In this document: piece after piece, positions 12,355 through 61,341 of the stretch
Layout: each line of letters opens with the position of its first letter
How positions within the stretch are numbered: the stretch's first letter is position 1
DNA from: a virus
Taxonomy: Duplodnaviria > Caudoviricetes
Virus record (IMG/VR): IMGVR_UViG_3300010885_069896
Coordinates: 1 to 64,000 of that record
Direction: 5' to 3' (one strand)
DNA length: 64,000 nucleotides
Made by a program: the position numbers and the translations under genes
Notes under the pieces: model-generated
Told to the model about the DNA's origin: nothing
What the model saw: the letters and a program-made list of their open reading frames with translations, nothing else
Databases searched by the model: none

Positions 12355-12447
12355 ATGATTGAAGAGTCAGATTTGATTTCAATTCCAAATGTAATTGTAC
12401 CACAAAAATCCAAAACCTTAATGCTCTCAGAACACCCATTTCATTAA
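12355..12447 (+). pseudogene. Diverged relic copy of glycosyltransferase exon 1 (30 codons)
   Basis: Encodes MIEESDLISIPNVIVPQKSKTLMLSEHPFH*, similar to MPIEQDDLQLITIPPKKHKILMLSDHP at 14141. Protein-level similarity ends at the intron insertion site. Confidence 0.7.
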
Positions 12448-12497
12448 TTGCACTCCCACTTCACTACTTACCCTAAGAATGTGGTGGTATAGTAGCC

Positions 12498-13217
12498 ATG
12501 ACTCAAGACTGTCTTATTTGCAAAGCAAAATTTGAAGCTTTAAACTCTCAGAAAACCTGTTCTGAGCAATGCCGTATATCGCATCGTAAAAATCGCAGAA
12601 AAAAGAGTGACGAAAATATTACAGTTACAAGAATCTGTAAGTTCTGTGGTGAGTCGTTCAAAGCAAGGCGTTATAAATCAAAAGCTTTTTGTAACAGATC
12701 GTGTGCATCCAAGCATTACATTCAAAACGGAACATACGATAAGTGGAAAGCGTGTAATCCGACTCTAGGACGTATTGTACCACCAAAGCAAATAGAACAA
12801 CAAAAAAATACCATGATTCAAAAACATGGTGTTGTTTGTGGTTATCATCTTTCGAAAGCTAGACGCATATCAAAACAACAACAATTGATTTATGATATCG
12901 TAAAAAACATAGACGAAACGGCCCTGATGGAAAAAATCGTACCATTCTCAAAGTATTTTGCTGATATTCTCATGCCAGAAAAAAGAAAAATAATCGAATA
13001 CAATGGCGATTACTGGCATTGTAATCCAAAAAAATACAATGCTGACTATTTCAATAAAAAAATTAAAAAATATGCAAAAGACATATGGGAAAATGATTTG
13101 AAAAGGCGAATGTCTTTAGAGGAACTTGGATATTCTATTTTATGTATATGGGAATCGGATTTTATCAACAATAGAGAGTCGGTAGAGCGAGAGATAAAAG
13201 AATTCATAATCGGATAA
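12498..13217 (+). CDS. Free-standing Vsr/DUF559-like endonuclease with Cys-rich zinc-binding N-terminus
   Basis: CxxC motifs (CLIC, CSEQC, CKFC, CNRSC), then YFADI, IIEYNGDYWH and GYSILCIWESD. Confidence 0.8.
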   Translation: MTQDCLICKAKFEALNSQKTCSEQCRISHRKNRRKKSDENITVTRICKFCGESFKARRYKSKAFCNRSCASKHYIQNGTYDKWKACNPTLGRIVPPKQIEQQKNTMIQKHGVVCGYHLSKARRISKQQQLIYDIVKNIDETALMEKIVPFSKYFADILMPEKRKIIEYNGDYWHCNPKKYNADYFNKKIKKYAKDIWENDLKRRMSLEELGYSILCIWESDFINNRESVEREIKEFIIG

Positions 13218-13272
13218 AATAATTTTCCTAACCGTACTCCGACTCCACTACTTATAATAGAAGGGGCCTATA

Positions 13273-14160
13273 ATGAAAAAACAGTGCATCATTTGTCATA
13301 TAGTATTTGACACACCACGCTCTAATAAAACTTGTTCAGAAGCATGTTATGAATCGCATAGAAAAAATCGAAGAGAAAATAGTGACAGTAATATAATTGT
13401 CACTAGAGAGTGTAAATTTTGCGGCGAGCCTTTTAAAGCAAAACGATATAAGCCAAAAACTTTTTGTAATAGATCATGTGCTTCAAAATATTATATTAAA
13501 AATGGGACATATGATAAATGGCGTTTGATGAAGATTGAACGACAAGGATTTTATGGATCTTGTAAAGTTTGTAAAAAATCAATTTATTTAGAGCCTCGAT
13601 TTAAAGAACTAGATTCTCTGGTAAAATTATGTGGAATTGAATGTGAGAAAATTCATTTTGCTTCATTGTTTAACGGAGAACAAAATCCAATGTATGGAAA
13701 AAAACTAACAATACAGCAAAAAGATAAACAAAAATCTACTTTATTTGAGCGGTACGGTGTTACTAACGCTTATTTTCTAGCTAAACGGAGCACTGTTTCT
13801 AAACCTCAGAGGGATCTTTATAATAATTTATCAGAATTATATAGATGTAAACTTGAAACGCTATTGCCATTCCATAGTGTTCGATATTTTGCCGATATCT
13901 TCATACCAGATAATAATATTGTTATCGAATTTATGGGAAACTACTGGCACTGTAATCCGTTGATGTATAAAGAAGATTACTGGCATAAGAAAAAATGTCA
14001 GTACGCTAGAGATGTTTGGGAATCAGATAAAATAAGAAAAGAAACTTTAGAGAAATTGGGTTATATTGTATATTACATTTGGGAATCTGATTATACAAGA
14101 GATAAAGAAAAAGCTATAAGAACACTTAAGGAGAAAATAGATGCCTATAGAACAAGATGA
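13273..14160 (+). CDS. Free-standing Vsr/DUF559-like endonuclease, paralogue of 12498..13217
   Basis: Near-identical N-terminus (CKFCGEPFKA, FCNRSCASK, NGTYDKW), plus YFADI, VIEFMGNYWH and GYIVYYIWESD. The last 20 nt overlap glycosyltransferase exon 1. Confidence 0.8.
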   Translation: MKKQCIICHIVFDTPRSNKTCSEACYESHRKNRRENSDSNIIVTRECKFCGEPFKAKRYKPKTFCNRSCASKYYIKNGTYDKWRLMKIERQGFYGSCKVCKKSIYLEPRFKELDSLVKLCGIECEKIHFASLFNGEQNPMYGKKLTIQQKDKQKSTLFERYGVTNAYFLAKRSTVSKPQRDLYNNLSELYRCKLETLLPFHSVRYFADIFIPDNNIVIEFMGNYWHCNPLMYKEDYWHKKKCQYARDVWESDKIRKETLEKLGYIVYYIWESDYTRDKEKAIRTLKEKIDAYRTR

Positions 14161-14222
14161 TTTACAATTAATTACCATACCACCAAAGAAGCATAAAATT
14201 TTAATGCTCTCTGATCATCCGT
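14141..14222 (+). CDS. GT-B (GT4-like) glycosyltransferase, exon 1
   Basis: SD AAGGAGA precedes ATG 14141. It reads MPIEQ...KILMLSDHP+T. Joining to 14502 gives the in-frame LMLSDHPLCTSGVGVQARFL (433 aa in total). Confidence 0.85.
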
Positions 14223-14501
14223 TGACATAATAGCGGATATAAAACTGGGTGAATTGCTGGGAAACCTTGAAGCTTCATGTACTACAACGCAACTAGAAAT
14301 GGTAAACGTGACAGTATGAAAAACATGAGGATTAGGCAATCAGCAGCCAAGCTTCTGTGTAGAAATACTGAAGAAGGTTCAACGACTACGGTTAGCCTAA
14401 AAGCCATCAAAAGCTCATGGCGATGATCCGACAGCGCCCAGCATCTTTTTTATTAAGATGATGATATAGTCTACTCATAATAGAAATATTATGTATCAAG
14501 G
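14223..14501 (+). ncRNA. Group I self-splicing intron without an ORF (279 nt, IA-like)
   Basis: P1: exon AUCCGU pairs with IGS GCGGAU, with a U-G pair at the splice site. P3 CUGGGUG/CGCCCAG, P4 UUGCUG/CAGCAG, P7 GACUA/UAGUC, P8 CAUC/GAUG, P9 CAUAAUA-GAAA-UAUUAUG. Terminal G at 14501; removal restores the reading frame. Confidence 0.92.
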
Positions 14502-15721
14502 TATGCACTTCTGGTGTTGGTGTACAAGCCCGGTTTCTAATACAGGGACTTATAAATACAGGAAAATATTCATTTCGTTGTTTGGGCGGGGCGGTGAAAC
14601 ATCCAAACTATGATACAGTTATGGTTAATCCTGATTTTGTAATTAAGCCTGTAGATGGATTTGGTAATCATGAAATTATCCGAAATATCCTAATCAGCGA
14701 ACGACCAGATGCACTTCTGCTATTCACGGACCCACGGCAATTTATGTGGCTCTGGGAAATTGAAGATGAGATCCATCAATTCTGTCCAATCACTTATTGG
14801 CACGTATGGGACAATGATCCATATCCATCATTCAACAATGTATGGTATCAATCAACTGATCTTATTAATTGTTTGTCATATAAAACATATGAACTAATCA
14901 AACCTCATTTCCCTGAGAAAACAAATTATATCCCACATGCATTTCCAAAACAAGTATATAACAAATTACCAGAACAACAAGTTAAACAGCTTCGATTGAA
15001 TAATTTCAAAGATCGAGCCGATTGGTTTACTGGCCTATGGGTTAACCGTAACGCAACCCGTAAAATGCCAAATGACGTACTAAATGCCTGGAAGGTATTC
15101 CTTGACCGGCTAGAGGCTGAAGAAGGGCATCGTAAAGCTCAAATGATCATGCATACAGATCCCATGGACGGCGAAGGGCCAAACCTTATTGCTACAGCAG
15201 AAATGCTTGGTATTAGTCAAAACGTACTATTTTCAACCCAAAAAGTTGATTTTAATGATATGAATGCTTTGTATAACTGTGTAGATTTTACTGTAAATGT
15301 TAGCAAGGCAGAGGGTTTTGGTCTTGCCACTTTATCTACAATGATGACTGGTAAGCCTATTATCGCTCTAAAAACTGGCGGTATGACCAGACAGGTGGTT
15401 GATCACAGAGATGGCACGGAACATGGCGTAGCGATCGAACCAGCGGCACGTACAATGGTTGGATCACAAATGGTTCCTTATATCTACGATGATCATGTGA
15501 ACTATCTTGATGTGGCAGATGCTTATATGAAAGTTTACAAACTTACGCCAGAAGAAAAAGCTGCTCTCTCTGAGAAGAATATTGCTTATTGCGACTATGA
15601 ATTTGGATATGAAAACATCATTCAGCAGTGGGACGAAACATTATCGAAAACCATTGATGCGTGGAAGACTGAACCACAAAAACATTGGACATGTGAACAA
15701 CTACGTCCATTTGGCAAATGA
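14502..15721 (+). CDS. GT-B (GT4-like) glycosyltransferase, exon 2
   Basis: TSGVGVQAR, FTDPR, WHVWDN, YIPHA, NRNATRK, SKAEGFGL, GKPIIA. The ORF-track TTG start at 14582 is an artefact of the intron. Confidence 0.88.
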
Positions 15722-15749
15722 TAAAGGCGATAAGAAAGGTAATTAAAAA

Positions 15750-17254: not shown

Positions 17255-17257
17255 TAA

Positions 17258-18004
17258 ATGCGAATCGGAAAAAAATTAATAAAGCGAAAACCAAAAAATG
17301 GAGCTACACCACAGGAATTTTATTTTGGTGCAGGAACACAGCAGGCAATTGTAGAATATAAAGATGAGCTTGATTTCAAAAAAAGAAATCAATTGTATGT
17401 TAATGACATACTGCCTGCATTTAATAAACTTGTAGAAAATTTAATTAATGTTTATGGCTTTCAAATACAGTATGAGTCAAAAATAGATTTACAAAATGAA
17501 TGCGTAGAGTTTCTTTATGGAGTAATTACTAAATTTGATGCAACCAAGGGTGCTAAGGCATTTAGTTATTTCAATGTCGTGGCTAAAAATTGGTTGATCA
17601 TAAAATCAAAACAAAGCGTTAGAAACCTTCATGTTTTTACCTCTATCGATGATACCGATTCATTATCACAGCATGACTTAGAAATCATTGAAAATTATAG
17701 TATTGCACCGTCCCCCGAAGACGTTATGACCAAGGGTAATGATAGCGAAAAACTAAAATATGTACTTGATAGAGTTTCGGCTTTAGCAGTAACAGAAAAT
17801 GAAACGCTTTGTTTAAAAGGTATAAATCTTCTGTTTAGCAATATCAATGATTTAGATTTCCTTAACAAAAGAGCAATAATGCTCTATTTGCGTGAGATAA
17901 CGTCCTTGAACCCAAAACAGTTGAGCGTTGTTTTATCGACCCTGAAGCGTTATTATAAAACAGCTAAACACTGCGATGACCAGGATAATATTATTGTATC
18001 TTGA
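17258..18004 (+). CDS. Phage RNA polymerase sigma factor (late, T4 gp55-like)
   Basis: Region-2-like DLQNECVEFL-KFDATKGAKAFSYFNVVAKNWL; located just before the virion genes. Confidence 0.65.
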   Translation: MRIGKKLIKRKPKNGATPQEFYFGAGTQQAIVEYKDELDFKKRNQLYVNDILPAFNKLVENLINVYGFQIQYESKIDLQNECVEFLYGVITKFDATKGAKAFSYFNVVAKNWLIIKSKQSVRNLHVFTSIDDTDSLSQHDLEIIENYSIAPSPEDVMTKGNDSEKLKYVLDRVSALAVTENETLCLKGINLLFSNINDLDFLNKRAIMLYLREITSLNPKQLSVVLSTLKRYYKTAKHCDDQDNIIVS

Positions 18005-18017
18005 GTAGAGTTAAGGT

Positions 18018-19121
18018 ATGATTTTCTTTCATGTTCGTCCTGGCATAATATCTGGTGTATATGAAATAAGAAATCGTATATCCAATAAAAGTTATATTGG
18101 CTCAGCATCAGATATTAGAGCTAGATGGTCAAATCATGCTCGTTTGTTAAAAAAAACAACCCATCCTAATTTACACCTTCAGGAATCATTTAAAAAACAC
18201 TTCGATGCTTTGGAAGACACTAGTTTCATGGAATTCCACATCATCGAACAAATGCCGTGTTCAACAAAAAAACAAAGATTAGAAAAAGAAACGTATTGGA
18301 TCACTCAAGCAGTCGAGCAATACGGCAGAAGAAATATTTTCAATATCAATCTAGATCCAGCAAATGAGCAGAGTAGTATATGGGCAAAAAATCCTGAAGA
18401 AGCAAAAGAGAAAATTAGGAAAAAGGCGCTTGGCAGAAAGCATACCGCAGAAACAAAAAAGAAATTAAGTATTGCTAAAGCCGGATCAATTCCTTGGAAT
18501 AAAAACTTGACCGGAGTTGCGCCTCCTGCCTGGAATAAAGGCATGGTTGGAAAATATCATCTCGGACCTCCTTCTGCCGAAACAAGACAAAAGATATCAC
18601 GAGCCAATATTGGCAAAATTTCAAGTGAAGAATCTAAAAGAAAGAACAGAGAATCACACCTTGGAAAGAATAGCCATTGGTACGGCAAGGATGGGCACAC
18701 AGAGGAAGCAAAGCGTAAGATCAGCGAAGCCCACAAGGGTAAACGTCTAACGCCACAGAACGAGTTTAAAAAAGGAAACATTCCATGGACCAAAGGCAAA
18801 AAACTCAGCGAAGAGACAAAAAGAAAAATAAGTAATGCAAATTCAGGAAGAGCTAGGGCAGATATTCAAGGATCAAAACATCATGGAGCAAAAGCCCTAG
18901 ACCTATCAGACGATCCAGTAATTTCTCCAGGTGGCAATGAATACGTCAAAATTGAATGTATCAGAGAATTTTGTAAACTACACGGAATAAATAGCAGTTG
19001 TACATTTGGCTCTGTATTAAATGGCAAAAAGAAATCTTATTATGGTTGGATGTTAAAAAGCGTAAAGCTATCTATGAACAAAGAAACAACTATACAGAAT
19101 AGTGAAATAGAAAATGAGTAA
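18018..19121 (+). CDS. GIY-YIG homing endonuclease with NUMOD3-like repeats
   Basis: GVYEIRNRISNKSYIGS, conserved R and E, repeated HTAETKKKLS/SEETKRKIS and PWNK motifs. Confidence 0.92.
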   Translation: MIFFHVRPGIISGVYEIRNRISNKSYIGSASDIRARWSNHARLLKKTTHPNLHLQESFKKHFDALEDTSFMEFHIIEQMPCSTKKQRLEKETYWITQAVEQYGRRNIFNINLDPANEQSSIWAKNPEEAKEKIRKKALGRKHTAETKKKLSIAKAGSIPWNKNLTGVAPPAWNKGMVGKYHLGPPSAETRQKISRANIGKISSEESKRKNRESHLGKNSHWYGKDGHTEEAKRKISEAHKGKRLTPQNEFKKGNIPWTKGKKLSEETKRKISNANSGRARADIQGSKHHGAKALDLSDDPVISPGGNEYVKIECIREFCKLHGINSSCTFGSVLNGKKKSYYGWMLKSVKLSMNKETTIQNSEIENE

Positions 19122-19536
19122 TGATATTTTAATGGATGATCCATCAGCGATAGATAAATTCAATCCTCCTTCTGGCCATCAGCTAGTAGAAAAAACAGAT
19201 AAAGAGCTTGAGGTATTTGTTGACCTATTAGATTCAATTAACACAATCGACGAACGATTAAAAATTTTATGGCGGCAGATATACGAAAATGCACTTATAG
19301 ATCGTCGAAATGCTTATATGATATGGACGGACTTGTACCTAACAGTACACGGAAATCCAGAACAACATGTGATTCATGGCGATCACTTGGCGAAATATAT
19401 GGAGCGTATGGAAAAAGCTAACACTCAACTTCTTAAACTAGCTGAACTTGTTTATAAAGCAAAAGACAGGCAAGAAGCAGATGAATTACCAAGAGGAAAT
19501 TCTTTGTTCGATAGGCTTGAAAAAAGAAATAGGTAA
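19114..19536 (+). CDS. Hypothetical helical protein (140 aa)
   Basis: Clean ORF overlapping the upstream stop; no function recognised. Confidence 0.7.
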   Translation: MSNDILMDDPSAIDKFNPPSGHQLVEKTDKELEVFVDLLDSINTIDERLKILWRQIYENALIDRRNAYMIWTDLYLTVHGNPEQHVIHGDHLAKYMERMEKANTQLLKLAELVYKAKDRQEADELPRGNSLFDRLEKRNR

Positions 19537-20613
19537 ATACTGGGTAAGCACTACTAATGCACTAGCTGTTACAGAGGAATAGCGATGATATTCGAACATG
19601 ATGGAAACTCAAAACTGTCGGGGATATATGAAATTCGCAATCGTCTGTCTGGGAAAAGTTACATTGGATCTGCAAAACGTATCAAAGATCGCTGGAATAT
19701 ACACGCATCTTCTCTGCGTAGCAACAAACACCAGAACAAACATTTACAACATTCTTTCAACAAAGGAATAGAATATCTGAGTCACGAAGATTTTATTGAA
19801 TTTCATGTTGTAGAAATAATGCAGTCCTCATCCAAAGAAGAAAGACTTGGGCGAGAAACATACTGGATCGAGAAAGCGATCGAAGTTTACGGTAGAGAAA
19901 ATATATACAACATGAGACTTGATCCAAATAAAGAAAATAAGGAATGGTCAAGTAACCCTAAAAAAACTAGAGAAAAAATGTCTGCCGCTCATCGCAGTAA
20001 AAAATTATCAGAAGATACAAAGAGGCGCATAAGTGTATCGAAGAAAGGTATACCAAACACGAAAGCAATTGGTGTTCCACGATCCGAAGTCACCAAGCAT
20101 AGAATCAGCAAAGCAAATTCAGGGAAGCGACGTTCGGACGAAGCAAAAAAACGAATGCGTGAAGCTAGCAGTGGGCATGTTGCCTGGAATAAAGGCTTGA
20201 CAGGAAAAGCTAACCCCATACATGGACATGAAGTATCTGAAGAGACAAGAAGAAAAATTTCGATAGCTAACAAGGGTCGAGTCATGCCTGACCACATCAG
20301 GAAGAAAATGAGTGAGTGCCATAGAGGTATTTCTTGCTCAGAAGCTGCTAAAGAAAAATTGCGAAAAGCCTTTACGGGCAGATTAGTTTCTGAAGAAACA
20401 AGAATGAGGCTGAAAGAAGCATGGAAAAGAAGAAAGTTATCGAAATTCCAGGATTCAACTGAGGTAGTATCTATCTTTGTCGAAGAACAGAAATGATAAA
20501 TAAAAAATTAATGATTTATTCCCGAGAATGGTATATAAAATCAAAAAATAATGTGCAGATAAATTACCTCTTGGTAATTCATCGTTTGATAGGCTTGAAA
20601 AAGAAATAGGTAA
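19477..20613 (+). repeat. Imperfect ~60-bp direct repeat (19477-19536 and 20555-20613) flanking a GIY-YIG gene
   Basis: gcagatgaattaccaagaggaaattctttgttcgataggcttgaaaaaagaaataggtaa versus gcagataaattacctcttggtaattcatcgtttgataggcttgaaaaa-gaaataggtaa; 50 of 60 positions identical by manual alignment. Confidence 0.9.
19585..20496 (+). CDS. GIY-YIG homing endonuclease with NUMOD3 repeats
   Basis: GIYEIRNRLSGKSYIGS and many SEETRRKIS-type repeats; N-domain closely related to 18018..19121. Confidence 0.92.
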   Translation: MIFEHDGNSKLSGIYEIRNRLSGKSYIGSAKRIKDRWNIHASSLRSNKHQNKHLQHSFNKGIEYLSHEDFIEFHVVEIMQSSSKEERLGRETYWIEKAIEVYGRENIYNMRLDPNKENKEWSSNPKKTREKMSAAHRSKKLSEDTKRRISVSKKGIPNTKAIGVPRSEVTKHRISKANSGKRRSDEAKKRMREASSGHVAWNKGLTGKANPIHGHEVSEETRRKISIANKGRVMPDHIRKKMSECHRGISCSEAAKEKLRKAFTGRLVSEETRMRLKEAWKRRKLSKFQDSTEVVSIFVEEQK

Positions 20614-20618
20614 TTGTC

Positions 20619-22391: not shown

Positions 22392-22407
22392 AAGCTATTG
22401 CCCAAAT
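22379..22407 (+). promoter_or_regulatory. Perfect 13-bp hairpin over the spike stop codon, just upstream of the endonuclease start
   Basis: ATTTGGGCAATAG-aag-CTATTGCCCAAAT; ATG at 22417; no U-tract. Confidence 0.7.
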
Positions 22408-22416
22408 CGTAGCTCT

Positions 22417-23226
22417 ATGAAACATGAAGAACAAGAGAAAGATTTATTAAAATCTGGTATTTACACGCTGACAAATAAGCTAAATGGAAGAATATATATT
22501 GGATCTGCAAAGAGATTTAGAGATCGTTGGCAATCTCACAGATATTGTCTTAAAGCCAATAAACATAGCAACTGTTTTCTACAGGCCGATTATAATAAAT
22601 GTGGCCCTGGGTCTTTTTTATTTAAAATTGTTGAATTAACTGATGATAAATCAAAAGAAGAAAGGTTGCTGATTGAAGAAAAATGGATTGAGCAATATTA
22701 TGATTCTGGCCATAAATGCTATAATCTTTGTAAAAGAGCTTTTTCACGAGAGGGGTGCCGTGATAAAAGCACAAAAGAGACTAAGGAAAGAAAAAGAAAA
22801 GCTGGTCTTAAGAACATGGAAAATCCTGAATTCAGGAATAGGTCAATTGAATCTTTGCGTATTAATTTATTATTAAATGGACCTCCGAATCTAGGCAATA
22901 AGCATAGTACAGAAACAAAAAAGATAATGTCTGACAAGCATATAGGAAAATTAAAATCCGAAGAAACAAAGAGACGAATGTCGGAAGCGCAATCTAAACG
23001 TGCTGAAAGTAATCCAAGTTTTATAAAAAATCTTTACCTATCCAGCTTAGAATCTGTTTCAAAACCTATAATTGTAAGAAATAAAATAACCGGCGAAATT
23101 ATAAGGTGTATTTCTAAAACAGCAACATGTAAAGAATTTGGGTTTAAAAATACAAAACAGTTAAAATGGTACATTGATGGTAAATGGGTTCATGATTTAT
23201 ATGAATTCTATGAAGAAGCTCAATAA
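22417..23226 (+). CDS. GIY-YIG homing endonuclease
   Basis: SGIYTLTNKLNGRIYIGS, NUMOD3 HSTETKKIMS. Start moved from 22183 to ATG 22417, after the spike gene ends. Confidence 0.9.
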   Translation: MKHEEQEKDLLKSGIYTLTNKLNGRIYIGSAKRFRDRWQSHRYCLKANKHSNCFLQADYNKCGPGSFLFKIVELTDDKSKEERLLIEEKWIEQYYDSGHKCYNLCKRAFSREGCRDKSTKETKERKRKAGLKNMENPEFRNRSIESLRINLLLNGPPNLGNKHSTETKKIMSDKHIGKLKSEETKRRMSEAQSKRAESNPSFIKNLYLSSLESVSKPIIVRNKITGEIIRCISKTATCKEFGFKNTKQLKWYIDGKWVHDLYEFYEEAQ

Positions 23227-23320
23227 TCATAATACTAACACTATGTACCAATGTTATATTATCAAATAACATTAAATTCTAAAATTATCATTAGTTATGA
23301 ATAGGAATTAATTAAATAAC

Positions 23321-50469: not shown

Positions 50470-50514
50470 TGTCTATATTAATAGAAACAGCAGGGGTTTG
50501 TATAATTTTAAATT

Positions 50515-52411: not shown

Positions 52412-52470
52412 TGCTTTATTAATTTTAAAATATCTTAATATAACTAAGTGTATAGAAAATAGTCAATTAC

Positions 52471-53268
52471 ATGACATGGCAGCAAAAAAATTTTTTGTTT
52501 AAAAGACTAGGGCTGTTAGATTATTCATACAAAAATAAATCAGGTTTATATCTCATAGAAAATTTAGATAGCAATCGATTTTATGTTGGCAGTGCAGTCG
52601 ATCTATATAAAAGAATGCACGTTCACCTTTGTCAATTAAAAGGAAATTATCATCATAACGCATTTTTACAACATGATTATAATTCTGGTAACAAAAAATT
52701 AGTTTTTACCGTTCTTGAGTTAATATCAAAGGATTTATTAATTACCGAAGAACAAAAATATATAGATTTAATTGGTAATAATTCGGTTTGTTACAATATT
52801 TGTAAAATTGCTGGTAGTTGGCTTGGAAAAAAACACTCAGCAAAAACAAAAAAGATCTTAAGCGAAAAATCCATCGGAAGAAAAATATCAGATGCCACAA
52901 AGGAAAAAATAAGAAGATCTCACGTTGGCAAACCTCTATCGCCACATCATCCAATCCGAAATGGACATACAGAGCAGAGTAAAAATAAAATTTCAAAAAC
53001 TATGCAGGGAAATAAAAATCATTTTTACGGCAAAACACATTCTAATAAGACAAAAACATTAATTAGAGAAAAACTACTAGGAAACTACCATGGCCCAAGA
53101 ACAAGAGTGAAGATAATTAATAAAGACTCTGGGGAGATTTTAGTTTTTGATAGCATGTCTGCCGCTGGTAAAAAACTGGGAATTAGTCAGTCTTATATAA
53201 GTCAAGTTTGTGCGGGTAAAATTAAAAATAATAAACCTTGGAATTTTGAGATAATTAAAGAAGAATAA
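52471..53268 (+). CDS. GIY-YIG homing endonuclease with a portal-like N-terminal peptide
   Basis: SGLYLIEN-RFYVGS, NUMOD3 HSAKTKKILS, NUMOD1-like FDSMSAAGKKLGIS. The first 16 aa resemble the portal N-terminus. Confidence 0.9.
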   Translation: MTWQQKNFLFKRLGLLDYSYKNKSGLYLIENLDSNRFYVGSAVDLYKRMHVHLCQLKGNYHHNAFLQHDYNSGNKKLVFTVLELISKDLLITEEQKYIDLIGNNSVCYNICKIAGSWLGKKHSAKTKKILSEKSIGRKISDATKEKIRRSHVGKPLSPHHPIRNGHTEQSKNKISKTMQGNKNHFYGKTHSNKTKTLIREKLLGNYHGPRTRVKIINKDSGEILVFDSMSAAGKKLGISQSYISQVCAGKIKNNKPWNFEIIKEE

Positions 53269-53269
53269 T

Positions 53270-56200
53270 ATGGCAAATCAACAAAAAAGTTTCTATCAAC
53301 GTTTAACTCGTCTTTTCCGAAGTGGCCCAGCAATTCGCCGCAAAGTAAAAGGGCAAGATTATAAAAATTTCTACGATAATCAAGTTGTACAAAACAATCT
53401 AGGATATTATGGTGCATCTGGGTTTAAACGGGAAGCATCGCCATTTTCCGTCATGGGTGCTTATGGTATCCTCGATCGCAATTCAAGATATGCAGAGTTC
53501 GCAGAAATGGAAAACTGCTTGCATGGTGACACTAAAATTGCAGTGCCTGGAGGATATAAAACACTCAAGGAACTAACTGAAGAATATGGATTAGAAAAAG
53601 ATTTCATTGTATATTCTTACGATCACAAAAAAGGTGCAATTTTTCCGGCAGTGGCACGTCAGGCAAGACATACTACAACCACTCATGCTTATCGAGTTAA
53701 ATTTGATAATGGCAAAGAAATTATAGGAACAGAGGATCATCGTCTCATGAAACGAGATGGTACTTATTGTGAAATTCGTGATCTTAAGTCTGGTGATGCG
53801 ATGATGCCATTTTATCGACGATCTCTTGTCGGACAAAAAACAGGACCAGAGCTTCAAAAAAATTGTTATCAAGTTATATACACGATGAATAAAGAAGATA
53901 GTCCATCTAGATGGATATCGGAGCACAGATTGTTAGGTAAATTTATCACAGGAAAAGGTTTGGCTGCAAACGAAGTTGTTCATCATAAAAATTTTCAAGC
54001 TCACGATAATCGACTAGAAAATCTAGAGCTTATGACACTGGAGGCACATCAAACGTTGCACGCAAAAATACTGAATGGTAAAAAATGGGACAAAGAAACC
54101 AACTCAGAATGGATATCAGCATTCAAGAAACGTCACTCGGCTTGGATGAAAGAAAATAACCCAGCAGAAAGAAAAGATATTAAATTTGAAAGAATATTGC
54201 AATGGTGTGATGAAAACGGTTATAATTTACATGCTGTCGCTAGAGCGTTTGATACTGACCTCAATACAATTAAAAGAAAACTAAAATTAAAAGGCTTTAA
54301 TGATTTTATTTCATTCGCAAAAGCATACTGCGTTGGCTGGAAACCTTATAACGGAGAAAATAAAGGATCTAGTAACAATCGCTATCGTAGCGATCTAACG
54401 TTTGAATCGATCTGCAACGCATACACAAAAGGGCTAAGTCAAAAAGCGCTCGCCAAGAAACTAAAATCTTCAGTTACTCCAATAAATGCTAGGTTAAAAG
54501 AACACAAATATAATACATGGTCAGAATTCGCCTCGACATATGAAAATCTTAAAGTTGAAAGCATTGAGTATTATGGGATAACTGACCTGTATGATATCAC
54601 TGTCGATGGTTACAAAAACTTTGCGACAGATTCTCTCATAGCCCACAATACGGCTGAGATCGCTACTGCATTAAATGTATATGCTGACGAGTCTTGTGCG
54701 ACTGATGAAAAAGGAAAAACATTCCACATTTACTCAGAAAATGCACAAGTACAAAAGGCGCTAGAAGAGTTGTTTTACGAAGTTGTTAATATTGAATTTA
54801 ATGCCCGTAGAATGGTGAGAAATTTAGTTAAAAATGGCGACTATTTTTGTTATGTTGAAGTAGTACCAGATTTTGGCGTTATTAATGTTGAACCATTGCC
54901 AGTCAATGAAATCGAACGTGAAGAAGGATTCGATAAACATGATCCATATGCTGTTCGTTATCGCCTGATAACTCGTGGCGGAAAATATTTAGAAAACTGG
55001 CAGATGCTACATTTCCGTATTCTTGGAAATGATCTTTTCCTTCCGTATGGAACAAGCTTTCTTGAATCTGCACGTAGGTCATGGCGTCAGTTAACAATGA
55101 TGGAAGATGCGATGATGGTATATCGCTTAGTGCGATCACCGGAACGTCGTGTGTTTTATATAGATGTATCAGCAGTCCATCCAAACGATATTCCATCATA
55201 TATGGAGGCCGTCAAGGAGGGGATGAGAGGTGCTTCCGTAATTGAGCAGCAGCAAGGTCGTCAGGATTTCAGATATAACCCATTGCCCGTGCATAAAGAT
55301 ACTGGGATTCCACTGCTTGACGGCAGAACAATAACCATTGAAGAGCTTGCGAAAGAGTACGATACAGGAAAAGAAAACTGGGTATATTCTATTCAGGACT
55401 CTAGCCTCGGAATAGTTCCAGGTAAAGTAGCATGGTGTGGTAAAAATTATACCGCAAATAAATTAATCAAGATAACTCTTGATGATGGAACTAGCCTTAA
55501 AACTGCACCAGAGCACCCTTACGTGCTTCGTGATGGTTCAAGTGTAAGAGCGGACCAATTGATCCCTGGAATGTCTCTAATGCCCCTTTATAGAGAGATT
55601 ACGGACAAAGGATATGAACGGTGCTATAACCCAGAAACCCAGAAATATGAAACCACTCATTCTTTAGTTGCAAAAAACTTCTACCAGAATGAATGGCAGA
55701 ATACAGCGAGACCTGTGGTTCATCATAAGTGTCCATGGGAAAGAGAAACTAATAAAAGAAATAATTCTCCAAGAAATCTAGAAGTAATGAATTTTTGGCA
55801 ACATAGAGAGCTTCATGCAAAAATGGTTGAGCATACTTTGCTTCGCCCCGAAGTATTAAAAGAAAATTCTCGTAGATTGACACGATACAATCGTTCAAAA
55901 CTACATAGCACCCGTGTGTCATTGAATAATATAAAATATCAAAAGGGCCAAAAATTATCTCAGCTATACAATGGTTCTGATCTTCACAAAGAGCATAATG
56001 AAATCAGAAAAGCTGCTCAATTTAATTCATGGTCATTGAACAAGGCGGAACGTTGCCAAGCAATGAGATTTAAATTTACGGAAAAATGCTTGCAAATAGC
56101 TAAAGATTTGCTGTCTGCTAACCCAACTATTTCACGAGATGAATTTGGGGCAAGATTACAAAATAATATTGAATTCGTAGCGGCGATAAAAGAAGCAAAC

Positions 56201-58807
56201 GCTAATACGAAACGTCAAAATAAAATCCCAAACCATAGAATACTTGCACAGAATATTTCTAACTATGCTGGTTTTGAATCTTATGTGGATTTCAAAAACT
56301 CATTCTCTTCTCATCAATATCTTAATCATAAAATTTCAATAGTTGAGACAGTCACAGAAACAGTTGATGTTTATTGCATGACAGTGGTTGGGCCAAATGG
56401 TGAAGAAGATCGTCACAATTTTGCTGCTGTATCTAATGATGATACGGGTAATTCTAAAGAAAAAATTTCGGCAATATTTCTAAAAAACTCCGTAGATGAG
56501 GATTACTTTCTACCAACTAGACCAAACAATCAGACTAAAATTGAATCTATTGCGGGTGGACAAAATACAACGGCCACAGAAGATGTGGAGTACATCCAGA
56601 AAAAACTTATTGCTGCCCTCATGGTACCAAAGGCGTACCTTACATACGATGAAGCAATATCATGCTTGGTCGGAGAAACGCAAATACCTTTACTTGACGG
56701 TTCTAGCCCCACTATCAAAGAACTTTCAGATAAATTTGCTAATGGAGAATTAACTGAAGCTTATTGCTATTCGACTTTACTTGATGGGACAGTTGTTCCA
56801 GGTAAAATAAACAAAGCGTGGGCCACCAAAAAAGTAAATTCAACATATCGGATTTATTTAGACAATGGAGAATATATCGACTGTACGGAAAATCACCCAT
56901 TCCTGTTTAAAAACGGGGTCTATAAACGTGCTGATGAATTGACTGTTAATGACTCATTGATGCCTGTGTATAAAAAACTATCCTCCAAACAAGACAAAGA
57001 TTTACTGGATGGATATGAAATGGTATTTGACAATAAAACTGGTGAATGGAAATATACACACAAAATGGTATCTGACTGGCAAGCTGAAAACAATGGTGGT
57101 TATACTATAGGTAAACAAAGAGTAGTACACCATGTAGATTTTAATAAACTAAATAATAGTCCAAAAAATCTACAAGAGATGACTTGGTACAGCCATAGAA
57201 AACTACATTCACAAAATCTTTCATCGACAATTTTACGACCAGATGTAATGATAAAACGAGAGCCAAGTAGACTTGCTGCGCTTTCGGCATCTAGACACCG
57301 TAATATAAAATCAAGACAAATGAAACAACAAATGAACGATCCAAAATCGGCTTTGCGTTCATGGGTCCATGGGGAAGAAATAAAACAAGTAGTATCCAGA
57401 AACATGAAAGCCGCTTGGAGTACCGAGAAATATCGTTCAATAAAAACCAAGCAAAATAAAGAGATATTACAAAAACCAGAAGTTAGAGAAAAATTGTTTG
57501 GTAAAAATCATTGGGCTGCAAGAGCTACTAAACATTTTGATTTGAATTGGCTTGTTGAATACTGTAAACAAAACAATGTAACAGAATATCTGCATTTCAG
57601 AAAATCATCACAGAACAATTCACCATGTAGCTCTAGAGTAGTCGGAAGAATATTCAGAGAAAACAATATTTCTGGCTGGCGTGAATTTGAAAAACAATAT
57701 CTTTGTTTCAATCACAAAGTTATTCAGATAGAAATAAAAGAGTGCGGTGATGAAGCCACACAGGGTGTTTGGGTATATGACTTGGAAGTAGAAAAGACAC
57801 ACAACTTCCTTGTAAAACAAGGCGTGGTAGTACACAACAGCAAAAGTACATTGGCTCAGGAGGACATTAGATTTTCTCGCACAATTGCAACATTACAAAA
57901 AATCATGATTGCTGAATTAAATAAACTTGCAATCATTCATTTGTATGCACTTGGATTCAGCGGAGATGATTTATTAAACTTTGAACTTAAATTCTCCAAC
58001 CCTTCGACAGTAGCAGTCCAGCAAAAACTAGCATTGGTTTCTCAAAAAATAGAAATAGCGGCAAAAGCTTGGGAAGTTTCTAAAGAAACAGGCATTATGA
58101 GTATGCCATATATTCAAAAAGAAATTCTTGGACTTCGCCCAGAAGAAATAAATCAAATCCGTCTTGAGGCCCGTCAAGATCAAGTTGCAATGGCCGAGCT
58201 TAAGAAAATAGCAGAAAATCCACCATTTGATAATTCCCTCGACTCAAATATAGATATTTTTGATAAGGGTAACTATAGCGTACCATCTTCTCCTTTTGCG
58301 CCAGACCCTAAACAACTAAGAGATATCGAATTAAAAAATCAAGAAGATGAACTAGCACTTCGCAGAGAAAGAAAATTGGAAAAGGAAAAAAATGGAGAAA
58401 ACTCAGGCGCTCCAATTAAACTTAACCCAACGCCAAATCTTGATAAAGCATTCCGCAGGAATAAAAGAAGCAAAGAATTCACTGGCATCAGTGCTTTGGC
58501 AATGCCTAACTTTAAAGACATGCTTGATATAACAAATAATCGTTATTCTAAAGACCCGTATGATACCCAGAGTTCAAATTATACAAGAAAATTTGTTCTT
58601 GAAGAAAGTCAGATTGAAAATGAGTTGCTTGGTCGTGGAAAACTACCATATAAAATTTCAAAAGAAATGCAATCTACATTAAAAACAATGAATGAATCCA
58701 TGAAAAGAGATTTTGAAATTAAAGGAATTGAACTGGTAAATGAAAAATCTTCAGAAGATCAATCAGATATGTTATTTTTAATAGAAAAAGATCTAAAAAC
58801 AGAATAG
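53270..58807 (+). CDS. Portal protein (T4 gp20-like) with three inteins; about 674 aa after splicing
   Basis: Extein motifs: EMEN|TAEIATALNVYADE, LVKNGDYF, QLTMMEDAMMVYRLVRSPERRVFYIDV, YNPL|SVDEDYFLP, EDVEYIQKKL-VPKAYL, TLAQEDIRFSRTI. Confidence 0.93.
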   Translation: MANQQKSFYQRLTRLFRSGPAIRRKVKGQDYKNFYDNQVVQNNLGYYGASGFKREASPFSVMGAYGILDRNSRYAEFAEMENCLHGDTKIAVPGGYKTLKELTEEYGLEKDFIVYSYDHKKGAIFPAVARQARHTTTTHAYRVKFDNGKEIIGTEDHRLMKRDGTYCEIRDLKSGDAMMPFYRRSLVGQKTGPELQKNCYQVIYTMNKEDSPSRWISEHRLLGKFITGKGLAANEVVHHKNFQAHDNRLENLELMTLEAHQTLHAKILNGKKWDKETNSEWISAFKKRHSAWMKENNPAERKDIKFERILQWCDENGYNLHAVARAFDTDLNTIKRKLKLKGFNDFISFAKAYCVGWKPYNGENKGSSNNRYRSDLTFESICNAYTKGLSQKALAKKLKSSVTPINARLKEHKYNTWSEFASTYENLKVESIEYYGITDLYDITVDGYKNFATDSLIAHNTAEIATALNVYADESCATDEKGKTFHIYSENAQVQKALEELFYEVVNIEFNARRMVRNLVKNGDYFCYVEVVPDFGVINVEPLPVNEIEREEGFDKHDPYAVRYRLITRGGKYLENWQMLHFRILGNDLFLPYGTSFLESARRSWRQLTMMEDAMMVYRLVRSPERRVFYIDVSAVHPNDIPSYMEAVKEGMRGASVIEQQQGRQDFRYNPLPVHKDTGIPLLDGRTITIEELAKEYDTGKENWVYSIQDSSLGIVPGKVAWCGKNYTANKLIKITLDDGTSLKTAPEHPYVLRDGSSVRADQLIPGMSLMPLYREITDKGYERCYNPETQKYETTHSLVAKNFYQNEWQNTARPVVHHKCPWERETNKRNNSPRNLEVMNFWQHRELHAKMVEHTLLRPEVLKENSRRLTRYNRSKLHSTRVSLNNIKYQKGQKLSQLYNGSDLHKEHNEIRKAAQFNSWSLNKAERCQAMRFKFTEKCLQIAKDLLSANPTISRDEFGARLQNNIEFVAAIKEANANTKRQNKIPNHRILAQNISNYAGFESYVDFKNSFSSHQYLNHKISIVETVTETVDVYCMTVVGPNGEEDRHNFAAVSNDDTGNSKEKISAIFLKNSVDEDYFLPTRPNNQTKIESIAGGQNTTATEDVEYIQKKLIAALMVPKAYLTYDEAISCLVGETQIPLLDGSSPTIKELSDKFANGELTEAYCYSTLLDGTVVPGKINKAWATKKVNSTYRIYLDNGEYIDCTENHPFLFKNGVYKRADELTVNDSLMPVYKKLSSKQDKDLLDGYEMVFDNKTGEWKYTHKMVSDWQAENNGGYTIGKQRVVHHVDFNKLNNSPKNLQEMTWYSHRKLHSQNLSSTILRPDVMIKREPSRLAALSASRHRNIKSRQMKQQMNDPKSALRSWVHGEEIKQVVSRNMKAAWSTEKYRSIKTKQNKEILQKPEVREKLFGKNHWAARATKHFDLNWLVEYCKQNNVTEYLHFRKSSQNNSPCSSRVVGRIFRENNISGWREFEKQYLCFNHKVIQIEIKECGDEATQGVWVYDLEVEKTHNFLVKQGVVVHNSKSTLAQEDIRFSRTIATLQKIMIAELNKLAIIHLYALGFSGDDLLNFELKFSNPSTVAVQQKLALVSQKIEIAAKAWEVSKETGIMSMPYIQKEILGLRPEEINQIRLEARQDQVAMAELKKIAENPPFDNSLDSNIDIFDKGNYSVPSSPFAPDPKQLRDIELKNQEDELALRRERKLEKEKNGENSGAPIKLNPTPNLDKAFRRNKRSKEFTGISALAMPNFKDMLDITNNRYSKDPYDTQSSNYTRKFVLEESQIENELLGRGKLPYKISKEMQSTLKTMNESMKRDFEIKGIELVNEKSSEDQSDMLFLIEKDLKTE
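53516..54649 (+). mobile_element. Portal intein 1 (378 aa, class 1, HNH endonuclease)
   Basis: CLHGDTKI...GTEDHRL...VVHHKNF-DNRLENL...LYDITV...IAHN followed by Thr. Confidence 0.93.
55286..56488 (+). mobile_element. Portal intein 2 (401 aa, Pro-initiated and atypical, HNH endonuclease)
   Basis: PVHKDTGIPLLDG...TAPEHPY...VVHHK-NNSPRNL...VYCMTV...RHNF...IFLKN followed by Ser. Removal restores YNPLSVDEDY. Confidence 0.85.
56663..57838 (+). mobile_element. Portal intein 3 (392 aa, class 1, HNH endonuclease)
   Basis: CLVGETQIPLLDG...CTENHPF...VVHHVDFNKLNNSPKNL...VYDLEV...VVHN followed by Ser. Confidence 0.93.
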
Positions 58808-58880
58808 TAAATTCTATTTATGATAAGCTAGCTAGGCACGCAGCTATCTAATATAACTGTAATGCGGGTAAAAATAAATT

Positions 58881-59753
58881 ATGCAAAAGCTAAAACACAA
58901 TAAAAAACGAAACATCGGCCTACTTTATGAATTTTTCACACGGTTTATCGGTAAAGCTATTTTAGAAAATAGAGATAACGACATCGTAAAAGCAAAAACT
59001 TTGCTGAAAAAACATTTGAACCGTGGAACAGATCTCTATAAAGAATTAAAACTCTTTAAAGTGCTATCAGAAGCAAATGTCTCAAATCGAGAACAAGCAT
59101 TGCATCTTATAAATCGTGTCCGTGAAGCAGTGAAATATCAAAGCCAAGCTAGATTGGAGTTAGAAAAAACTAGCCTGATTCATGAAGTCAATTCTAACCT
59201 TAATGCCGATTTGTTTTTCGAAGAAGCTATTACAGACTATAAGAAATTAGGAGTAATCCAGGTTCTTTTAAATACTTGGAGAGATGAAACTCTCAAAGAA
59301 AGTGTGGTTGGCGAAACTGTATACCTTGAAGAAAAATTAATTGATTTCATGATGAACAATAATAGCAAGGACGATAGCCAACAAGCACTGCAAATGACAA
59401 CTGAAGACGTTGATCGTCTTGTAGTAAATCTAATGACCGAAAAGGTAAACAAGAAATACTCAAATCTAAATGAAGAACAAAAAGATGTGATCCGTCTTTA
59501 TGTTTTCAGTAAAGATGATGCACAAGTAAAAGAAAGCTTGGTAGAAAAATTGTCAGGAATAAAAAATAAATTCCTCGCAGTGCTGCCAGCCCATAGACAC
59601 GAATTTGTAAACGATAAAGTTCTTATCGATAAACTAAGCGAAGTAAAAAATACTCTTCTCAAAGAATATAGCGATTTTTCATCCGTCAATGATGATATGG
59701 TCGGGTTTTATCTTGGTTTATCTAAACTTGAACATGAGGTAAAATCAAAATGA
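58881..59753 (+). CDS. Conserved head-module protein of unknown function
   Basis: KLKHNKKRNIGLLYEF N-terminal motif; located between portal and protease; preceded by TCTAATATAA. Confidence 0.65.
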   Translation: MQKLKHNKKRNIGLLYEFFTRFIGKAILENRDNDIVKAKTLLKKHLNRGTDLYKELKLFKVLSEANVSNREQALHLINRVREAVKYQSQARLELEKTSLIHEVNSNLNADLFFEEAITDYKKLGVIQVLLNTWRDETLKESVVGETVYLEEKLIDFMMNNNSKDDSQQALQMTTEDVDRLVVNLMTEKVNKKYSNLNEEQKDVIRLYVFSKDDAQVKESLVEKLSGIKNKFLAVLPAHRHEFVNDKVLIDKLSEVKNTLLKEYSDFSSVNDDMVGFYLGLSKLEHEVKSK

Positions 59754-60373
59754 CCACAGAAAATAAAAAATATCTACTCAAAGAATTCACAAGCTTTGAG
59801 TACCTTGATGAAGATGTAAAAAAAATTACCGAAAAAGGAGGGCCAATGATCCTTAGCGGTATTCTGCAACGAGCAAATGCACTAAACCAAAATGGTCGTG
59901 TCTACCCAAAAGACATCCTAGAACGTGAAATACGGAACTATGAAAAATTAATCCGTGAAAAACGTGCTTTCGGTGAACTAGATCATGCCAATGAACCAAT
60001 TGTAAATATGAAAAATATCTCCCACACAATCCGTGAAATCTGGATGGAAGGAGATGTCGTTTATGGTAAAGTAGAAATACTTGATACACCTTGTGGCAAA
60101 ATCATTGAGGCCATCATCAAAGCAGGATGCAGACCAGGGATATCCTCACGTGCATTAGGATCTCTCCAGCGTGAAAACAATGTCAATGTTGTCCAAGATG
60201 ATTTGCAAATTATCTGCTGGGATTTCGTATCTGAGCCAAGTACAGCCGGTAGTTTCATGACCCTTGCAGAATCACGTCAGTTTAGTAATGAAGAGATAAA
60301 TAAAATCCTTAGTAAATCCGACAAAGTAGACAGAATAGTCAATGACATCCTTTCTCTGAAGACAAAAAAATAA
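59750..60373 (+). CDS. Prohead core protease (T4 gp21-like)
   Basis: GILQRA-NQNGRVYP, AFGELDH, NISH, ILDTPCG, GISSRALGS, WDFVSEPS. Confidence 0.95.
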   Translation: MTTENKKYLLKEFTSFEYLDEDVKKITEKGGPMILSGILQRANALNQNGRVYPKDILEREIRNYEKLIREKRAFGELDHANEPIVNMKNISHTIREIWMEGDVVYGKVEILDTPCGKIIEAIIKAGCRPGISSRALGSLQRENNVNVVQDDLQIICWDFVSEPSTAGSFMTLAESRQFSNEEINKILSKSDKVDRIVNDILSLKTKK

Positions 60374-60414
60374 TAATATCCATACTGAAATGGTCATAAT
60401 GATATTTAAAATCT

Positions 60415-61278
60415 ATGAAGTATTATTACGGCAGTAATTTACAATCTCCCTGCATTTACAAAATATTTAACACGCACTCCAAAAGAGTTTACATTGGCCA
60501 AACAATCACTGTTAAAAAGAGGTGGGTTTCGGGCCATAGCCTTAGATTAAAAAACAATAATCATTTTAATATTATTTTACAGAACGATTTCAATAAATGC
60601 TACAAAGCGCTAGGTCATACCGATTTTCTAGAATTTCATATTATTGAGTTATTGCCAGACTCAACACAGGAAACAAGAAATTTAAAAGAATGGCAATGGA
60701 TAAATGAATATAAGAAAACACATAAGTTATATAATATAATTCTAGAGTGTGATGGCCGAAAAGAAATGCCTCAAGAGTTAAAAAATAAAATTAGTGAAAC
60801 CAAGAAAAAATACTATAAATCCGAAGAAGGCAAAATTTTTATTGAAAAATTGTCAAAAAATAGGCTTGGAAAATCATATGAAGAATATTACGGAGAAGAG
60901 TTTGCGTCTGAAATAAAAAAATCCATAAGTGATAATAAAATTATTACAATGAATTTACCAGAGGTAAAAGAAAATCTATCTAAAATATTTACCGGAAAAT
61001 CATTCCAAGAGCGTTTCGGAGAAAGTAAGGCAGAAGAAATTTTAGAGAAGATGAGCGCTGCTCGCAAAGGAAAATATATCGGTAAAGAAAGTTCTCGATT
61101 TCGTATTATTGAGAACATCAAACTACTATCTCCTGATGGAATGATTTACAATAAAATTGAGGGCATCAAAGAGTTTGCCAAAGAGCATAAACTATCCAAG
61201 CATCATTTATGTGAATTGCTTGCAGGAAAAAGAAGAAGTCACCATGGATGGGTACTAGTTAATGATAATAATCAATGA
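60415..61278 (+). CDS. GIY-YIG homing endonuclease
   Basis: CIYKIFN-RVYIGQT; FLEFHIIELL shared with the 18018 and 19585 copies. Confidence 0.9.
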   Translation: MKYYYGSNLQSPCIYKIFNTHSKRVYIGQTITVKKRWVSGHSLRLKNNNHFNIILQNDFNKCYKALGHTDFLEFHIIELLPDSTQETRNLKEWQWINEYKKTHKLYNIILECDGRKEMPQELKNKISETKKKYYKSEEGKIFIEKLSKNRLGKSYEEYYGEEFASEIKKSISDNKIITMNLPEVKENLSKIFTGKSFQERFGESKAEEILEKMSAARKGKYIGKESSRFRIIENIKLLSPDGMIYNKIEGIKEFAKEHKLSKHHLCELLAGKRRSHHGWVLVNDNNQ

Positions 61279-61306
61279 TTTCATTGAACAACTGATGAAA
61301 TCATTG
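61273..61306 (+). terminator. 12-bp perfect hairpin at the endonuclease stop (terminator-like or processing signal)
   Basis: CAATGATTTCAT-10 nt-ATGAAATCATTG; AT-rich with no clear U-tract. Confidence 0.45.
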
Positions 61307-61341
61307 GAATATATTTAATAGTTTAAAAAGAAGTAAATATA

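Follow-up and report, generated by a model that had tools for sequence, protein, structure and literature searches.

Free-standing homing endonuclease genes that may restart the gene they enter: a candidate cassette in a phage and its relatives

Homing endonucleases depend on conserved targets and must reach them without killing the gene that they invade. Known ways of doing so involve introns, inteins, intergenic sites or split genes, the gene in pieces formed by nrdA/mobE of Aeh1 being an example of the last. Do phages use a further one? Here we analyze positions 1 to 64,000 of the IMG/VR virus record IMGVR_UViG_3300010885_069896 (Duplodnaviria; Caudoviricetes), a 64,000-nucleotide (nt) phage segment, called the window throughout, with a guanine-plus-cytosine content of 35% and a wealth of selfish elements. 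The parts mapped at the GT1, 19114/20619, portal and protease loci lie on its + strand. Our principal subject is GT1, a glycosyltransferase gene preceded by two tandem Vsr-like homing endonuclease genes (HEGs) and, on their far side, by a diverged second copy of its own start. Free-standing HEGs of two families, Vsr-like and GIY-YIG, reside in the window, and we propose, with a probability of roughly 60%, that some of them were inserted as a cassette made up of the nuclease gene and a replacement start for the gene downstream. A gene-restarting cassette of this kind would add another way for phages, one that mirrors the arrangement in fungal mitochondria.

The fungal systems are the closest described. 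There, mobile endonuclease open reading frames (ORFs) are accompanied by a duplicated gene terminus, in atp6 of Allomyces and in atp6, atp9, cox2 and nad3 of Glomus (PMC3630166), a parallel to which the first-pass annotation of the window had rightly pointed. Collaborative homing is documented in phages, and its origin has been called unclear (PMC10448857); the cases treated there and in PMC6083498 are psbA of cyanophage S-PM2 with F-CphI, the DNA polymerase of T3/T7-like phages and the ICP1 terminase. In fractured genes, Vsr-like and GIY-YIG nucleases lie between the two halves of a gene (PMC2677866). The EDxHD / Vsr-like nuclease I-Bth0305I belongs to the recA intron of Bacillus phage 0305phi8-36 and is placed in the P1 loop, right behind the 5' splice site (PMC2677866). 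Finally, a review of T4 describes overlaps between nuclease ORFs and neighboring genes as well as homing-site-like operators, and no duplicated gene ends (PMC2988022). We found no description of restart cassettes at phage gene starts in the open-access literature.

Flank duplications in the window were sought by local alignment of both flanks of each gene, as DNA and in three-by-three translated frames, against shuffled flanks. The test was rerun with 75 nt from each gene end added, and all other window genes (~38) served as controls. In this test two endonuclease loci alone rise above the background: the tandem Vsr-like pair has a translated z of 11-12, and the GIY-YIG gene at 19585-20496 a DNA z of 17 and a translated z of 13. 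The controls show no flank duplication except at 61342-63772, where a tandem array of four paralogues, each ~180-207 residues long and matching no family, causes a flank-similarity signal unrelated to endonucleases. The first-pass annotation had counted three clear duplications and a weak one and had expected such duplications to be commoner around endonucleases than around other genes. Of these duplications, those at GT1 and at the junction of genes 19114 and 20619 stand (targeted z 6.8 and 18.8), while that at the portal gene is weak and that at the prohead protease gene is unsupported.

In viral and metagenome contigs, scans recovered 17 and 29 loci that share the window's gene order (individual loci carry L numbers below), and 49 further loci were returned for the portal region, 17 of which (L128-L144) were examined. 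These relatives keep the gene order without the nucleases or the duplicates, and the nucleases and duplicated segments are therefore insertions, as had been supposed. GT1 is uninterrupted and free of a nuclease in 11 distinct relatives, and gene 19114 is directly followed by gene 20619 in ~25. No nuclease occurs in the examined relatives between the sigma-like gene and 19114, between 19114 and 20619, or before the portal gene; orthologs of the nucleases 22453 and 60415 do occupy the corresponding junctions in a few of them. Isolated phages are distant: megablast of the region found no match among them, tblastn of the 590-residue product of 20619-22391 likewise none, and the top isolate-phage matches to GT1 are just 24-32% identical. 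At three junctions of the window the start signals of the neighbor lie inside or adjoin the 3' end of the nuclease gene (neighbor start versus nuclease end: 14141 versus 14160, 19114 versus 19121, 53270 versus 53268), which supports the entanglement of translation signals reported earlier.

What is the structure of the GT1 locus? It begins with a relic copy of the gene start (12355-12447), 30 codons and a stop, whose frame is intact to the position matching the insertion site of a group I intron (after 12439). The relic is homologous to the GT1 start of an empty allele, L011 (z 9.5), and matches the GT1 start within the window by tblastn (E 0.002). As DNA, 12374-12451 aligns with 14158-14234 (52/76 identical, z 6.8; translated z 11-12). 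Relic and exon 1 can be aligned up to the intron insertion site and not beyond it. Past this site the tail of the relic matches neither exon 2 (p 0.14) nor the intron start, and a weak 12-nt likeness between tail and intron that had been suspected is dropped. Next comes the nuclease unit, which opens with a conserved 5' element (12438-12497) present a second time before the second nuclease gene (13218-13272; self-BLAST of 12438-12746 versus 13222-13521, alignment p 0.0065). Delimited by this tandem copy, the unit starts within ~2 nt of the relic end, and the sequence of the relic/unit junction is the same in the window, L018 and L100 despite different upstream genes. The unit contains HEG1 (12498-13217), a Vsr-like homing endonuclease gene of the DUF559 / I-Bth0305I type with N-terminal Cys-rich motifs, and its paralogue HEG2 (13273-14160; Pfam MTES_1575), which is 70% identical to the single nuclease of L018 and whose last 20 nt overlap the start codon and ribosome-binding site of GT1. 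Working exon 1 of GT1 (14141-14222), joined to position 14502, yields SDHPL-CTSGVG, uninterrupted in all intronless relatives; exon 2 (14502-15721) encodes the GT4-type glycosyltransferase (Pfam Glyco_trans_1_4, PHROG 2170) and is 81-85% identical to relatives. This arrangement supports the nuclease-proximal copy, which runs into the gene body, as the working one and the far copy as the relic.

HEG1 exceeds the cut-off of Pfam DUF559 (23.1 bits versus 20.6), and the MTES_1575 profile gives 30.5-31.5 bits, under its cut-off of 38.2. A sequence-profile search of PDB chains with the Vsr-like nuclease found nothing. An AlphaFold model of HEG1 has a mean predicted local distance difference test score of 77, rising to ~90 in the C-terminal domain. 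The top Foldseek match of the model is 3r3p, the catalytic domain of I-Bth0305I (probability 1.0, target template-modeling score 0.75-0.77, borderline E 1.4e-3), and Vsr itself follows (1cw0 and 1vsr, also with borderline E-values). The model thus points to a Vsr-type fold for the catalytic domain of HEG1. A search found 266 homologues of HEG1, and single-protein scans of viral or genome contigs with HEG2 gave no close relative.

The two exons of GT1 are separated by 279 nt (14223-14501) that form a group I intron, predicted to be self-splicing, without an ORF. The segment scores 93.5 bits against Rfam RF00028 (gathering score 50, E 9e-23), and its homologues in L018 and L025 score 101 and 89.8 bits. 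Its bounds were set by homology to uninterrupted relatives, and joining 14222 to 14502 restores the reading frame and sequence of the intronless homologues. In the six aligned sequences the P1 U-G pair at the 5' splice site is invariant, with a neighboring pair covarying from G-C to A-U, and the terminal G is present in 6/6; the seventh lineage, L099, was read by eye only. Compensatory changes that keep the pair occur at 37 of the 83 predicted pairs, a count drawn from only six sequences, one per lineage. Invasion at GT1 had been thought to be splicing-free. This does not hold for the window, where a group I intron sits exactly at the position at which the relic ends; it does hold for L100.

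Relatives display GT1 in a series of states. Besides the 11 distinct alleles with neither intron nor nuclease, L099 has the intron only. L105 has a short C-terminal remnant of HEG2 type, exon 1 and the intron; L106 has a truncated, degenerate nuclease, exon 1 and the intron; and L025 has an intact nuclease, exon 1 and the intron, with no clear relic. The full order of relic, nuclease, exon 1 and intron is found in the window, in L018/L019 (relic z 7.3) and probably in L110, whose relic is marginal at the DNA level (p 0.054) and cut short by a stop. L100 differs from all of these. It shows, in order, a HEG2 remnant, an exon 1 stopping at the intron site (relic z 8.2), the conserved 5' element, a HEG1-type gene (74% identical to HEG1) and an intronless full-length GT1, the ATG of which overlaps the nuclease stop (ATGA). 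Nuclease and new gene start thus stand in L100 exactly where other lineages have the intron. Among the seven intron lineages an intact nuclease precedes exon 1 in four (window, L018, L025, L110), remnants do so in two (L105, L106) and L099 has none; of the intronless alleles, only L100 has a nuclease. At one fixed site, then, the nuclease is polymorphic for presence and absence, degenerate copies included, and is intact in the window, L018, L025, L100 and L110.

Which of the two starts came with the nuclease? The window relic scores higher against the start of the empty allele L011 than against window exon 1 (z 9.5 versus 6.8-7.1, for segments of only 40-80 nt), and in L110 the relic looks like the start of another empty allele, L012. 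Both likenesses tentatively suggest that the relic is the resident copy.

L106 offers an independent case, with the other nuclease family. There, the first 16 codons of a GIY-YIG ORF are those with which the homologue of gene 26641 begins in every relative, and the 26641 homologue itself restarts at a GTG overlapping the nuclease stop (31/48 nt kept, translated z 12). The repeats of L100 and L106 reach DNA z 7.7-8.2 and lie in coding sequence. Together, L100 at GT1 and L106 at the 26641 homologue support the conclusion that a nuclease cassette which brings a gene start of its own can hold a coding site with no intron. Annotators can easily miscall short relic starts, as well as nuclease ORFs that begin with codons borrowed from a neighbor, and both mark recombination boundaries.

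How might such a cassette arise and spread? From the anatomy, empty alleles, allele series, intron and nuclease folds we infer cut sites, immunity, direction of transfer and repair route as follows. The cassette would carry the nuclease gene, a ribosome-binding site, a start codon and the first 8-30 codons of the downstream gene, and would land within the conserved 5' coding region, not far from its beginning. Severed from its gene, the resident start would remain upstream as a relic ending at the insertion point, and the gene body would be read from the new start abutting or overlapping the nuclease stop. At GT1 the insertion point would be shared with the ORF-less intron, making nuclease, new exon 1 and intron one composite. 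The nuclease would most likely cut intronless, nuclease-less GT1 alleles at or near the intron site. The working copy would be shielded by the intron, or by codon changes in the intronless L100 form, and the relic through its truncation at the junction. Furthermore, the relic would supply the left homology arm along with the native promoter and leader, and the whole unit would be copied into cut alleles via double-strand-break repair. As for the first junction, a break at the target was probably repaired from a donor non-homologous upstream of the nuclease; one end would have invaded the gene body, and the other, bearing the resident start, would have been joined illegitimately before the nuclease.

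Two sets of observations bear on this scheme. Relic and nuclease unit meet within ~2-15 nt of the intron insertion site, and the best reading of GT1 in the window is that of a nuclease and an intron acting on one site. In addition, a serine codon three codons into exon 2 (14510-14512) belongs to either the AGT or the TCN family among alleles, and nearby arginine codons also differ. The serine switch is present in L100 and the window, but also in one empty allele; codon switches behind the intron site would be compatible with selection for target-site escape and are not decisive. Recoding for immunity is plausible, as codon differences exist in both L100 and L106.

How does this compare with the described systems? 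Like the fungal elements, the phage nucleases are free-standing ORFs inside a conserved gene and need no intron; a diverged end is read with the gene core while the native end survives as an unexpressed relic, and in-frame fusions occur. A nuclease between a working and a relic terminus occurs at GT1 (window, L018, L100), at the 26641 homologue of L106 and at the repeat 19477/20555 discussed below. The fungal duplications differ in affecting the C-terminal end, with the order core, new end, nuclease, old end, whereas the order in the robust phage cases is old start, nuclease, new start, core. The host genome is here that of a phage, one of the nuclease families is Vsr-like, and the GT1 site is shared with a group I intron. 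Collaborative homing is approached in the ORF-less intron in a conserved gene, in the adjoining free-standing nuclease and in the co-occurrence of the two in 6/7 intron lineages, L025 having exactly this layout. It differs in that the GT1 nuclease is Vsr-like and upstream of the gene, that several lineages have, before the nuclease, an exon 1 relic reaching just to the intron insertion site and that L100 is intronless; cleavage at the intron site is a prediction here. With fractured genes our loci share the nuclease families, the insertion into phage coding sequence and the transport of gene control elements, but in those genes both pieces are needed, being united by split inteins or acting as two subunits, whereas here one gene is complete and the other piece is a redundant relic. 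I-Bth0305I, finally, is the best structural match of the HEG1 domain, and its position relative to its intron is that of the nuclease unit relative to the relic. The window nucleases, by contrast, lie outside the intron, with a second exon 1 in between, and have no sequence-level match to PDB chains.

A bolder view can be taken of these comparisons, one that we offer tentatively and hold to be somewhat improbable as a whole. The GT1 series may catch nucleases and an ORF-less intron in the act of converging on one site. The restart cassette would be an alternative to splicing, and the relic exon a homology arm that welds nuclease, new exon and intron into a mobile unit. On this view, cassettes would form a general, overlooked route into conserved phage genes and a stepping stone to mobile introns. 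The natural series at GT1 makes the origin of nuclease-intron partnerships directly testable.

The second robust duplication, at the junction of genes 19114 and 20619, is harder to read. Repeat copy A (19477-19560) spans the final 60 nt of gene 19114-19536 in their working form, then the stop of that gene and, in decayed form, the first codons of the next one. Copy B (20555-20641) comprises a relic of the 19114 3' end, frameshifted by a 1-nt deletion, followed by the working GTG start of gene 20619. Between them lies the GIY-YIG + NUMOD3 endonuclease gene 19585-20496, which has no close relative among viral contigs and is absent from ~25 relatives, in which 2-25 nt separate the end of 19114 from the 20619 homologue's start. 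The repeat (19477-19556 versus 20555-20634) is identical at 62/79 positions (z 17-19, targeted 18.8; self-BLAST E 1e-8), and tblastn with the 19114 C-terminus hits 20528-20602 (E 3.7e-5). It is collinear for ~24 nt beyond the stop, into the first 8 codons of 20619-22391 (p 0.05 alone), and the last 33 nt upstream of the 20619 start are nearly identical in both copies, which may reflect start signals of that gene. Upstream, a further GIY-YIG + NUMOD3 gene (18018-19121), absent from all relatives, overlaps the start of gene 19114 with its stop and shows no flank duplication (flank z <=0.3). A third junction copy before it, suggested by a MAFFT alignment, was not significant (z 0.3-1.1). The first-pass annotation had gene ends being rebuilt, and in the robust cases it is starts that are; the one 3'-end case among them is this duplicated gene junction, for which two other readings serve equally well, a region upstream of the gene that follows and a whole-gene duplicate that has decayed.

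Derived states found in no relative are common to copies A and B, and the donor was therefore this genome or a very close one. Might the nuclease and its neighbor simply have been duplicated in tandem and have decayed to end fragments, the duplicates being leftovers and not a mobile cassette? We consider this unlikely as an account of the phenomenon, though it is the strongest competitor, and its case is best at this junction. Within the window, nuclease 18018 has its closest paralogue in 19585 and vice versa (46% identical), and both genes end by overlapping, in the ATGA manner, a start of gene 19114, real or possible. The segment 20493-20554, which overlaps the stop of the 19585 nuclease in this way, is a candidate decayed 5' piece of a second gene 19114, a suggestion resting on an anchored sequence alignment (empirical p 0.027). 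The derived states shared by the two copies and the tandem paralogy of HEG1 and HEG2, 5' element included, speak for local duplication as well. Yet that p-value is all that the 5' fragment offers, and the third junction copy that such a history might have left before 18018 was rejected. Tandem duplication also leaves three things unexplained: why the GT1 relic ends at the intron site, why the L018/L100 junction recurs with different upstream genes, and how the 16-codon in-frame fusion of L106 came about. At 19114/20619 itself, restart cassette and decayed tandem duplication are not separable.

Some further observations concern the genes around this junction. The conserved gene 20619-22391 (590 residues) has no Pfam, PHROG or PDB-profile match. 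Its candidacy as portal was ruled out, the true portal gene being 53270-58807 (Portal_T4). Its homologue in L011/L108 aligns as two overlapping pieces (residues 5-138 and 133-590), suggesting a frameshift or a recombinant N-terminal part. The late-sigma-like gene 17258-18004 ends in ~6-11 residues absent in relatives; its reading frame seems to continue into sequence that arrived with the GIY-YIG gene next to it.

A somewhat less probable alternative holds that the upstream copy is kept for the use of the nuclease, as a promoter with a short leader ORF or as a homing-site-like operator for self-repression, as with I-TevI. The T4 intron endonucleases do bind homing-site-like operators overlapping their own promoters (PMC2988022), the relic frame is intact to the insertion site in the window, L018 and L100, and in L106 the native start is fused to the nuclease. 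Nevertheless, an open frame of 30 codons is not unlikely by chance in AT-rich DNA, the L110 relic is cut short by a stop, and the folding of hairpins in the RNA of the 5' element is not stronger than that of shuffled sequence (z -1.1 to +1.7). A function of this sort would complement the cassette and does not explain where the relic came from.

Before the portal gene, a GIY-YIG endonuclease gene (52471-53268) absent from the 15 relatives covering the junction has its stop 1 nt ahead of the portal's ATG. Over its first 16 residues the nuclease matches the portal N-terminus at 8/16 positions, and in a targeted N-terminus test the shuffle p was 0.019 (about 0.01-0.02), with 0/84 other ORF N-termini scoring as high. 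The motif QQK is common to this nuclease and the portal of this phage, where relatives have KEK. At the DNA level the portal signal is not significant (z 1.2, p 0.14-0.15), and untargeted flank scans give z 0.9-1.8. The GIY-YIG gene 60415-61278, behind the prohead protease gene (59750-60373), has no flank duplication at the protease 3' end (DNA and translated flank z -0.2 to -0.6, p 0.81; best tblastn match E 33). L142 carries an ortholog of it and L134 a degenerate one, but most relatives have nothing at this site.

How general is the arrangement? In L109 an ortholog of the 22453 nuclease has on either side a copy of a 31-nt intergenic motif (1247-1277 and 2099-2129) that is single in empty alleles, and in L102 the same nuclease family occurs at another junction with the same motif on both sides (13979-14004 and 15055-15080). 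The same motif thus flanks the nuclease at two junctions, and the repeat therefore seems to travel with it. The motif, GTAAAAC..CCTC..TACT (21-31 nt), follows the stop of the 20619 homologue in empty alleles, and occurs also in L111 (10774) and L108 (7869); a search of the window allowing up to 3 mismatches gave no copy. The motif may be a promoter or a nuclease target. A wider survey covered 58 distinct Vsr-like nuclease ORFs on unrelated viral contigs and 429 control ORFs, and gave 4 strong flank matches versus 5. Its other positives are repeated terminator- or promoter-like intergenic sequences, which also occur beside non-nuclease genes. In the unrelated viral contigs L031, L032, L038 and L066, small genes are flanked by near-identical terminator-plus-promoter-like repeats, like the mobile regulatory cassettes of T4-type phages. 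That the duplications are nothing but chance likeness of AT-rich sequence or repeated promoter/terminator cassettes as beside T4-type accessory genes, with no link to gene ends, is very improbable: the portal stays within noise in untargeted scans, the protease case is noise, L031, L032 and L038 do show repeated regulatory-type intergenic sequence, and the L109 and L102 repeats are intergenic motifs, but the GT1 and 19114/20619 repeats (z 7-19) lie in coding sequence homologous to relatives' genes, as do those of L100 and L106 (DNA z 7.7-8.2, L106 translated z 12).

Several findings weigh against insertion of nucleases together with a replacement gene start. Of the six nuclease loci of the window, four are without a robust duplication (none at 18018, 22453 and 60415, a weak one at 52471), and L142 has no repeat or duplication at its nuclease. 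The repeats of L109 and L102 are intergenic motifs of 26-31 nt, not gene ends. Among the 58 surveyed Vsr-like loci, gene-end duplication occurs at GT1 only, which speaks against the systematic phage pattern suggested by the first-pass annotation. A relic in L025 was not accepted (p 0.04). Because the start segments are too short for a tree, the assignment of native and incoming copies rests on few residues. Polarity cannot be read at 19114/20619, where the shared derived states point to local duplication or a very close donor and where the candidate 5' fragment of 19114 (p 0.027) would fit a decayed tandem duplication equally well. Finally, the link between cut site and duplication boundary is one that we infer. 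Weighing these points, we regard the pattern as recurrent in this phage group and not as general among phage endonucleases, and as one that concerns gene starts rather than ends.

The remaining selfish elements of the window are as follows. GIY-YIG genes number five (18018, 19585, ~22453, 52471 and 60415). All match Pfam GIY-YIG, four have NUMOD3 (below cut-off for 22183-23226) and 60415 has none; relatives without them exist for the same junctions. The nuclease at 22453-23226, like that at 18018-19121, shows no flank duplication in the scans. Inteins were found in two genes, three in the portal gene and one in a chaperonin gene. The portal gene (53270-58807), of the T4 gp20 type, encodes 1845 residues and matches Pfam Portal_T4; its three HNH inteins correspond to three Intein_splicing stretches and two HNH_3 domains (Pfam). 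The gene is uninterrupted in most relatives, and L133 has only the first intein. L141 and L142 have another kind of insertion in the portal; it lies in the second extein piece, around its residue 150. On the opposite strand, the Cpn60/GroEL-like gene 45968-48736 (-; 922 residues) has an insert with LAGLIDADG homing-endonuclease and Hint domains, the chaperonin intein.

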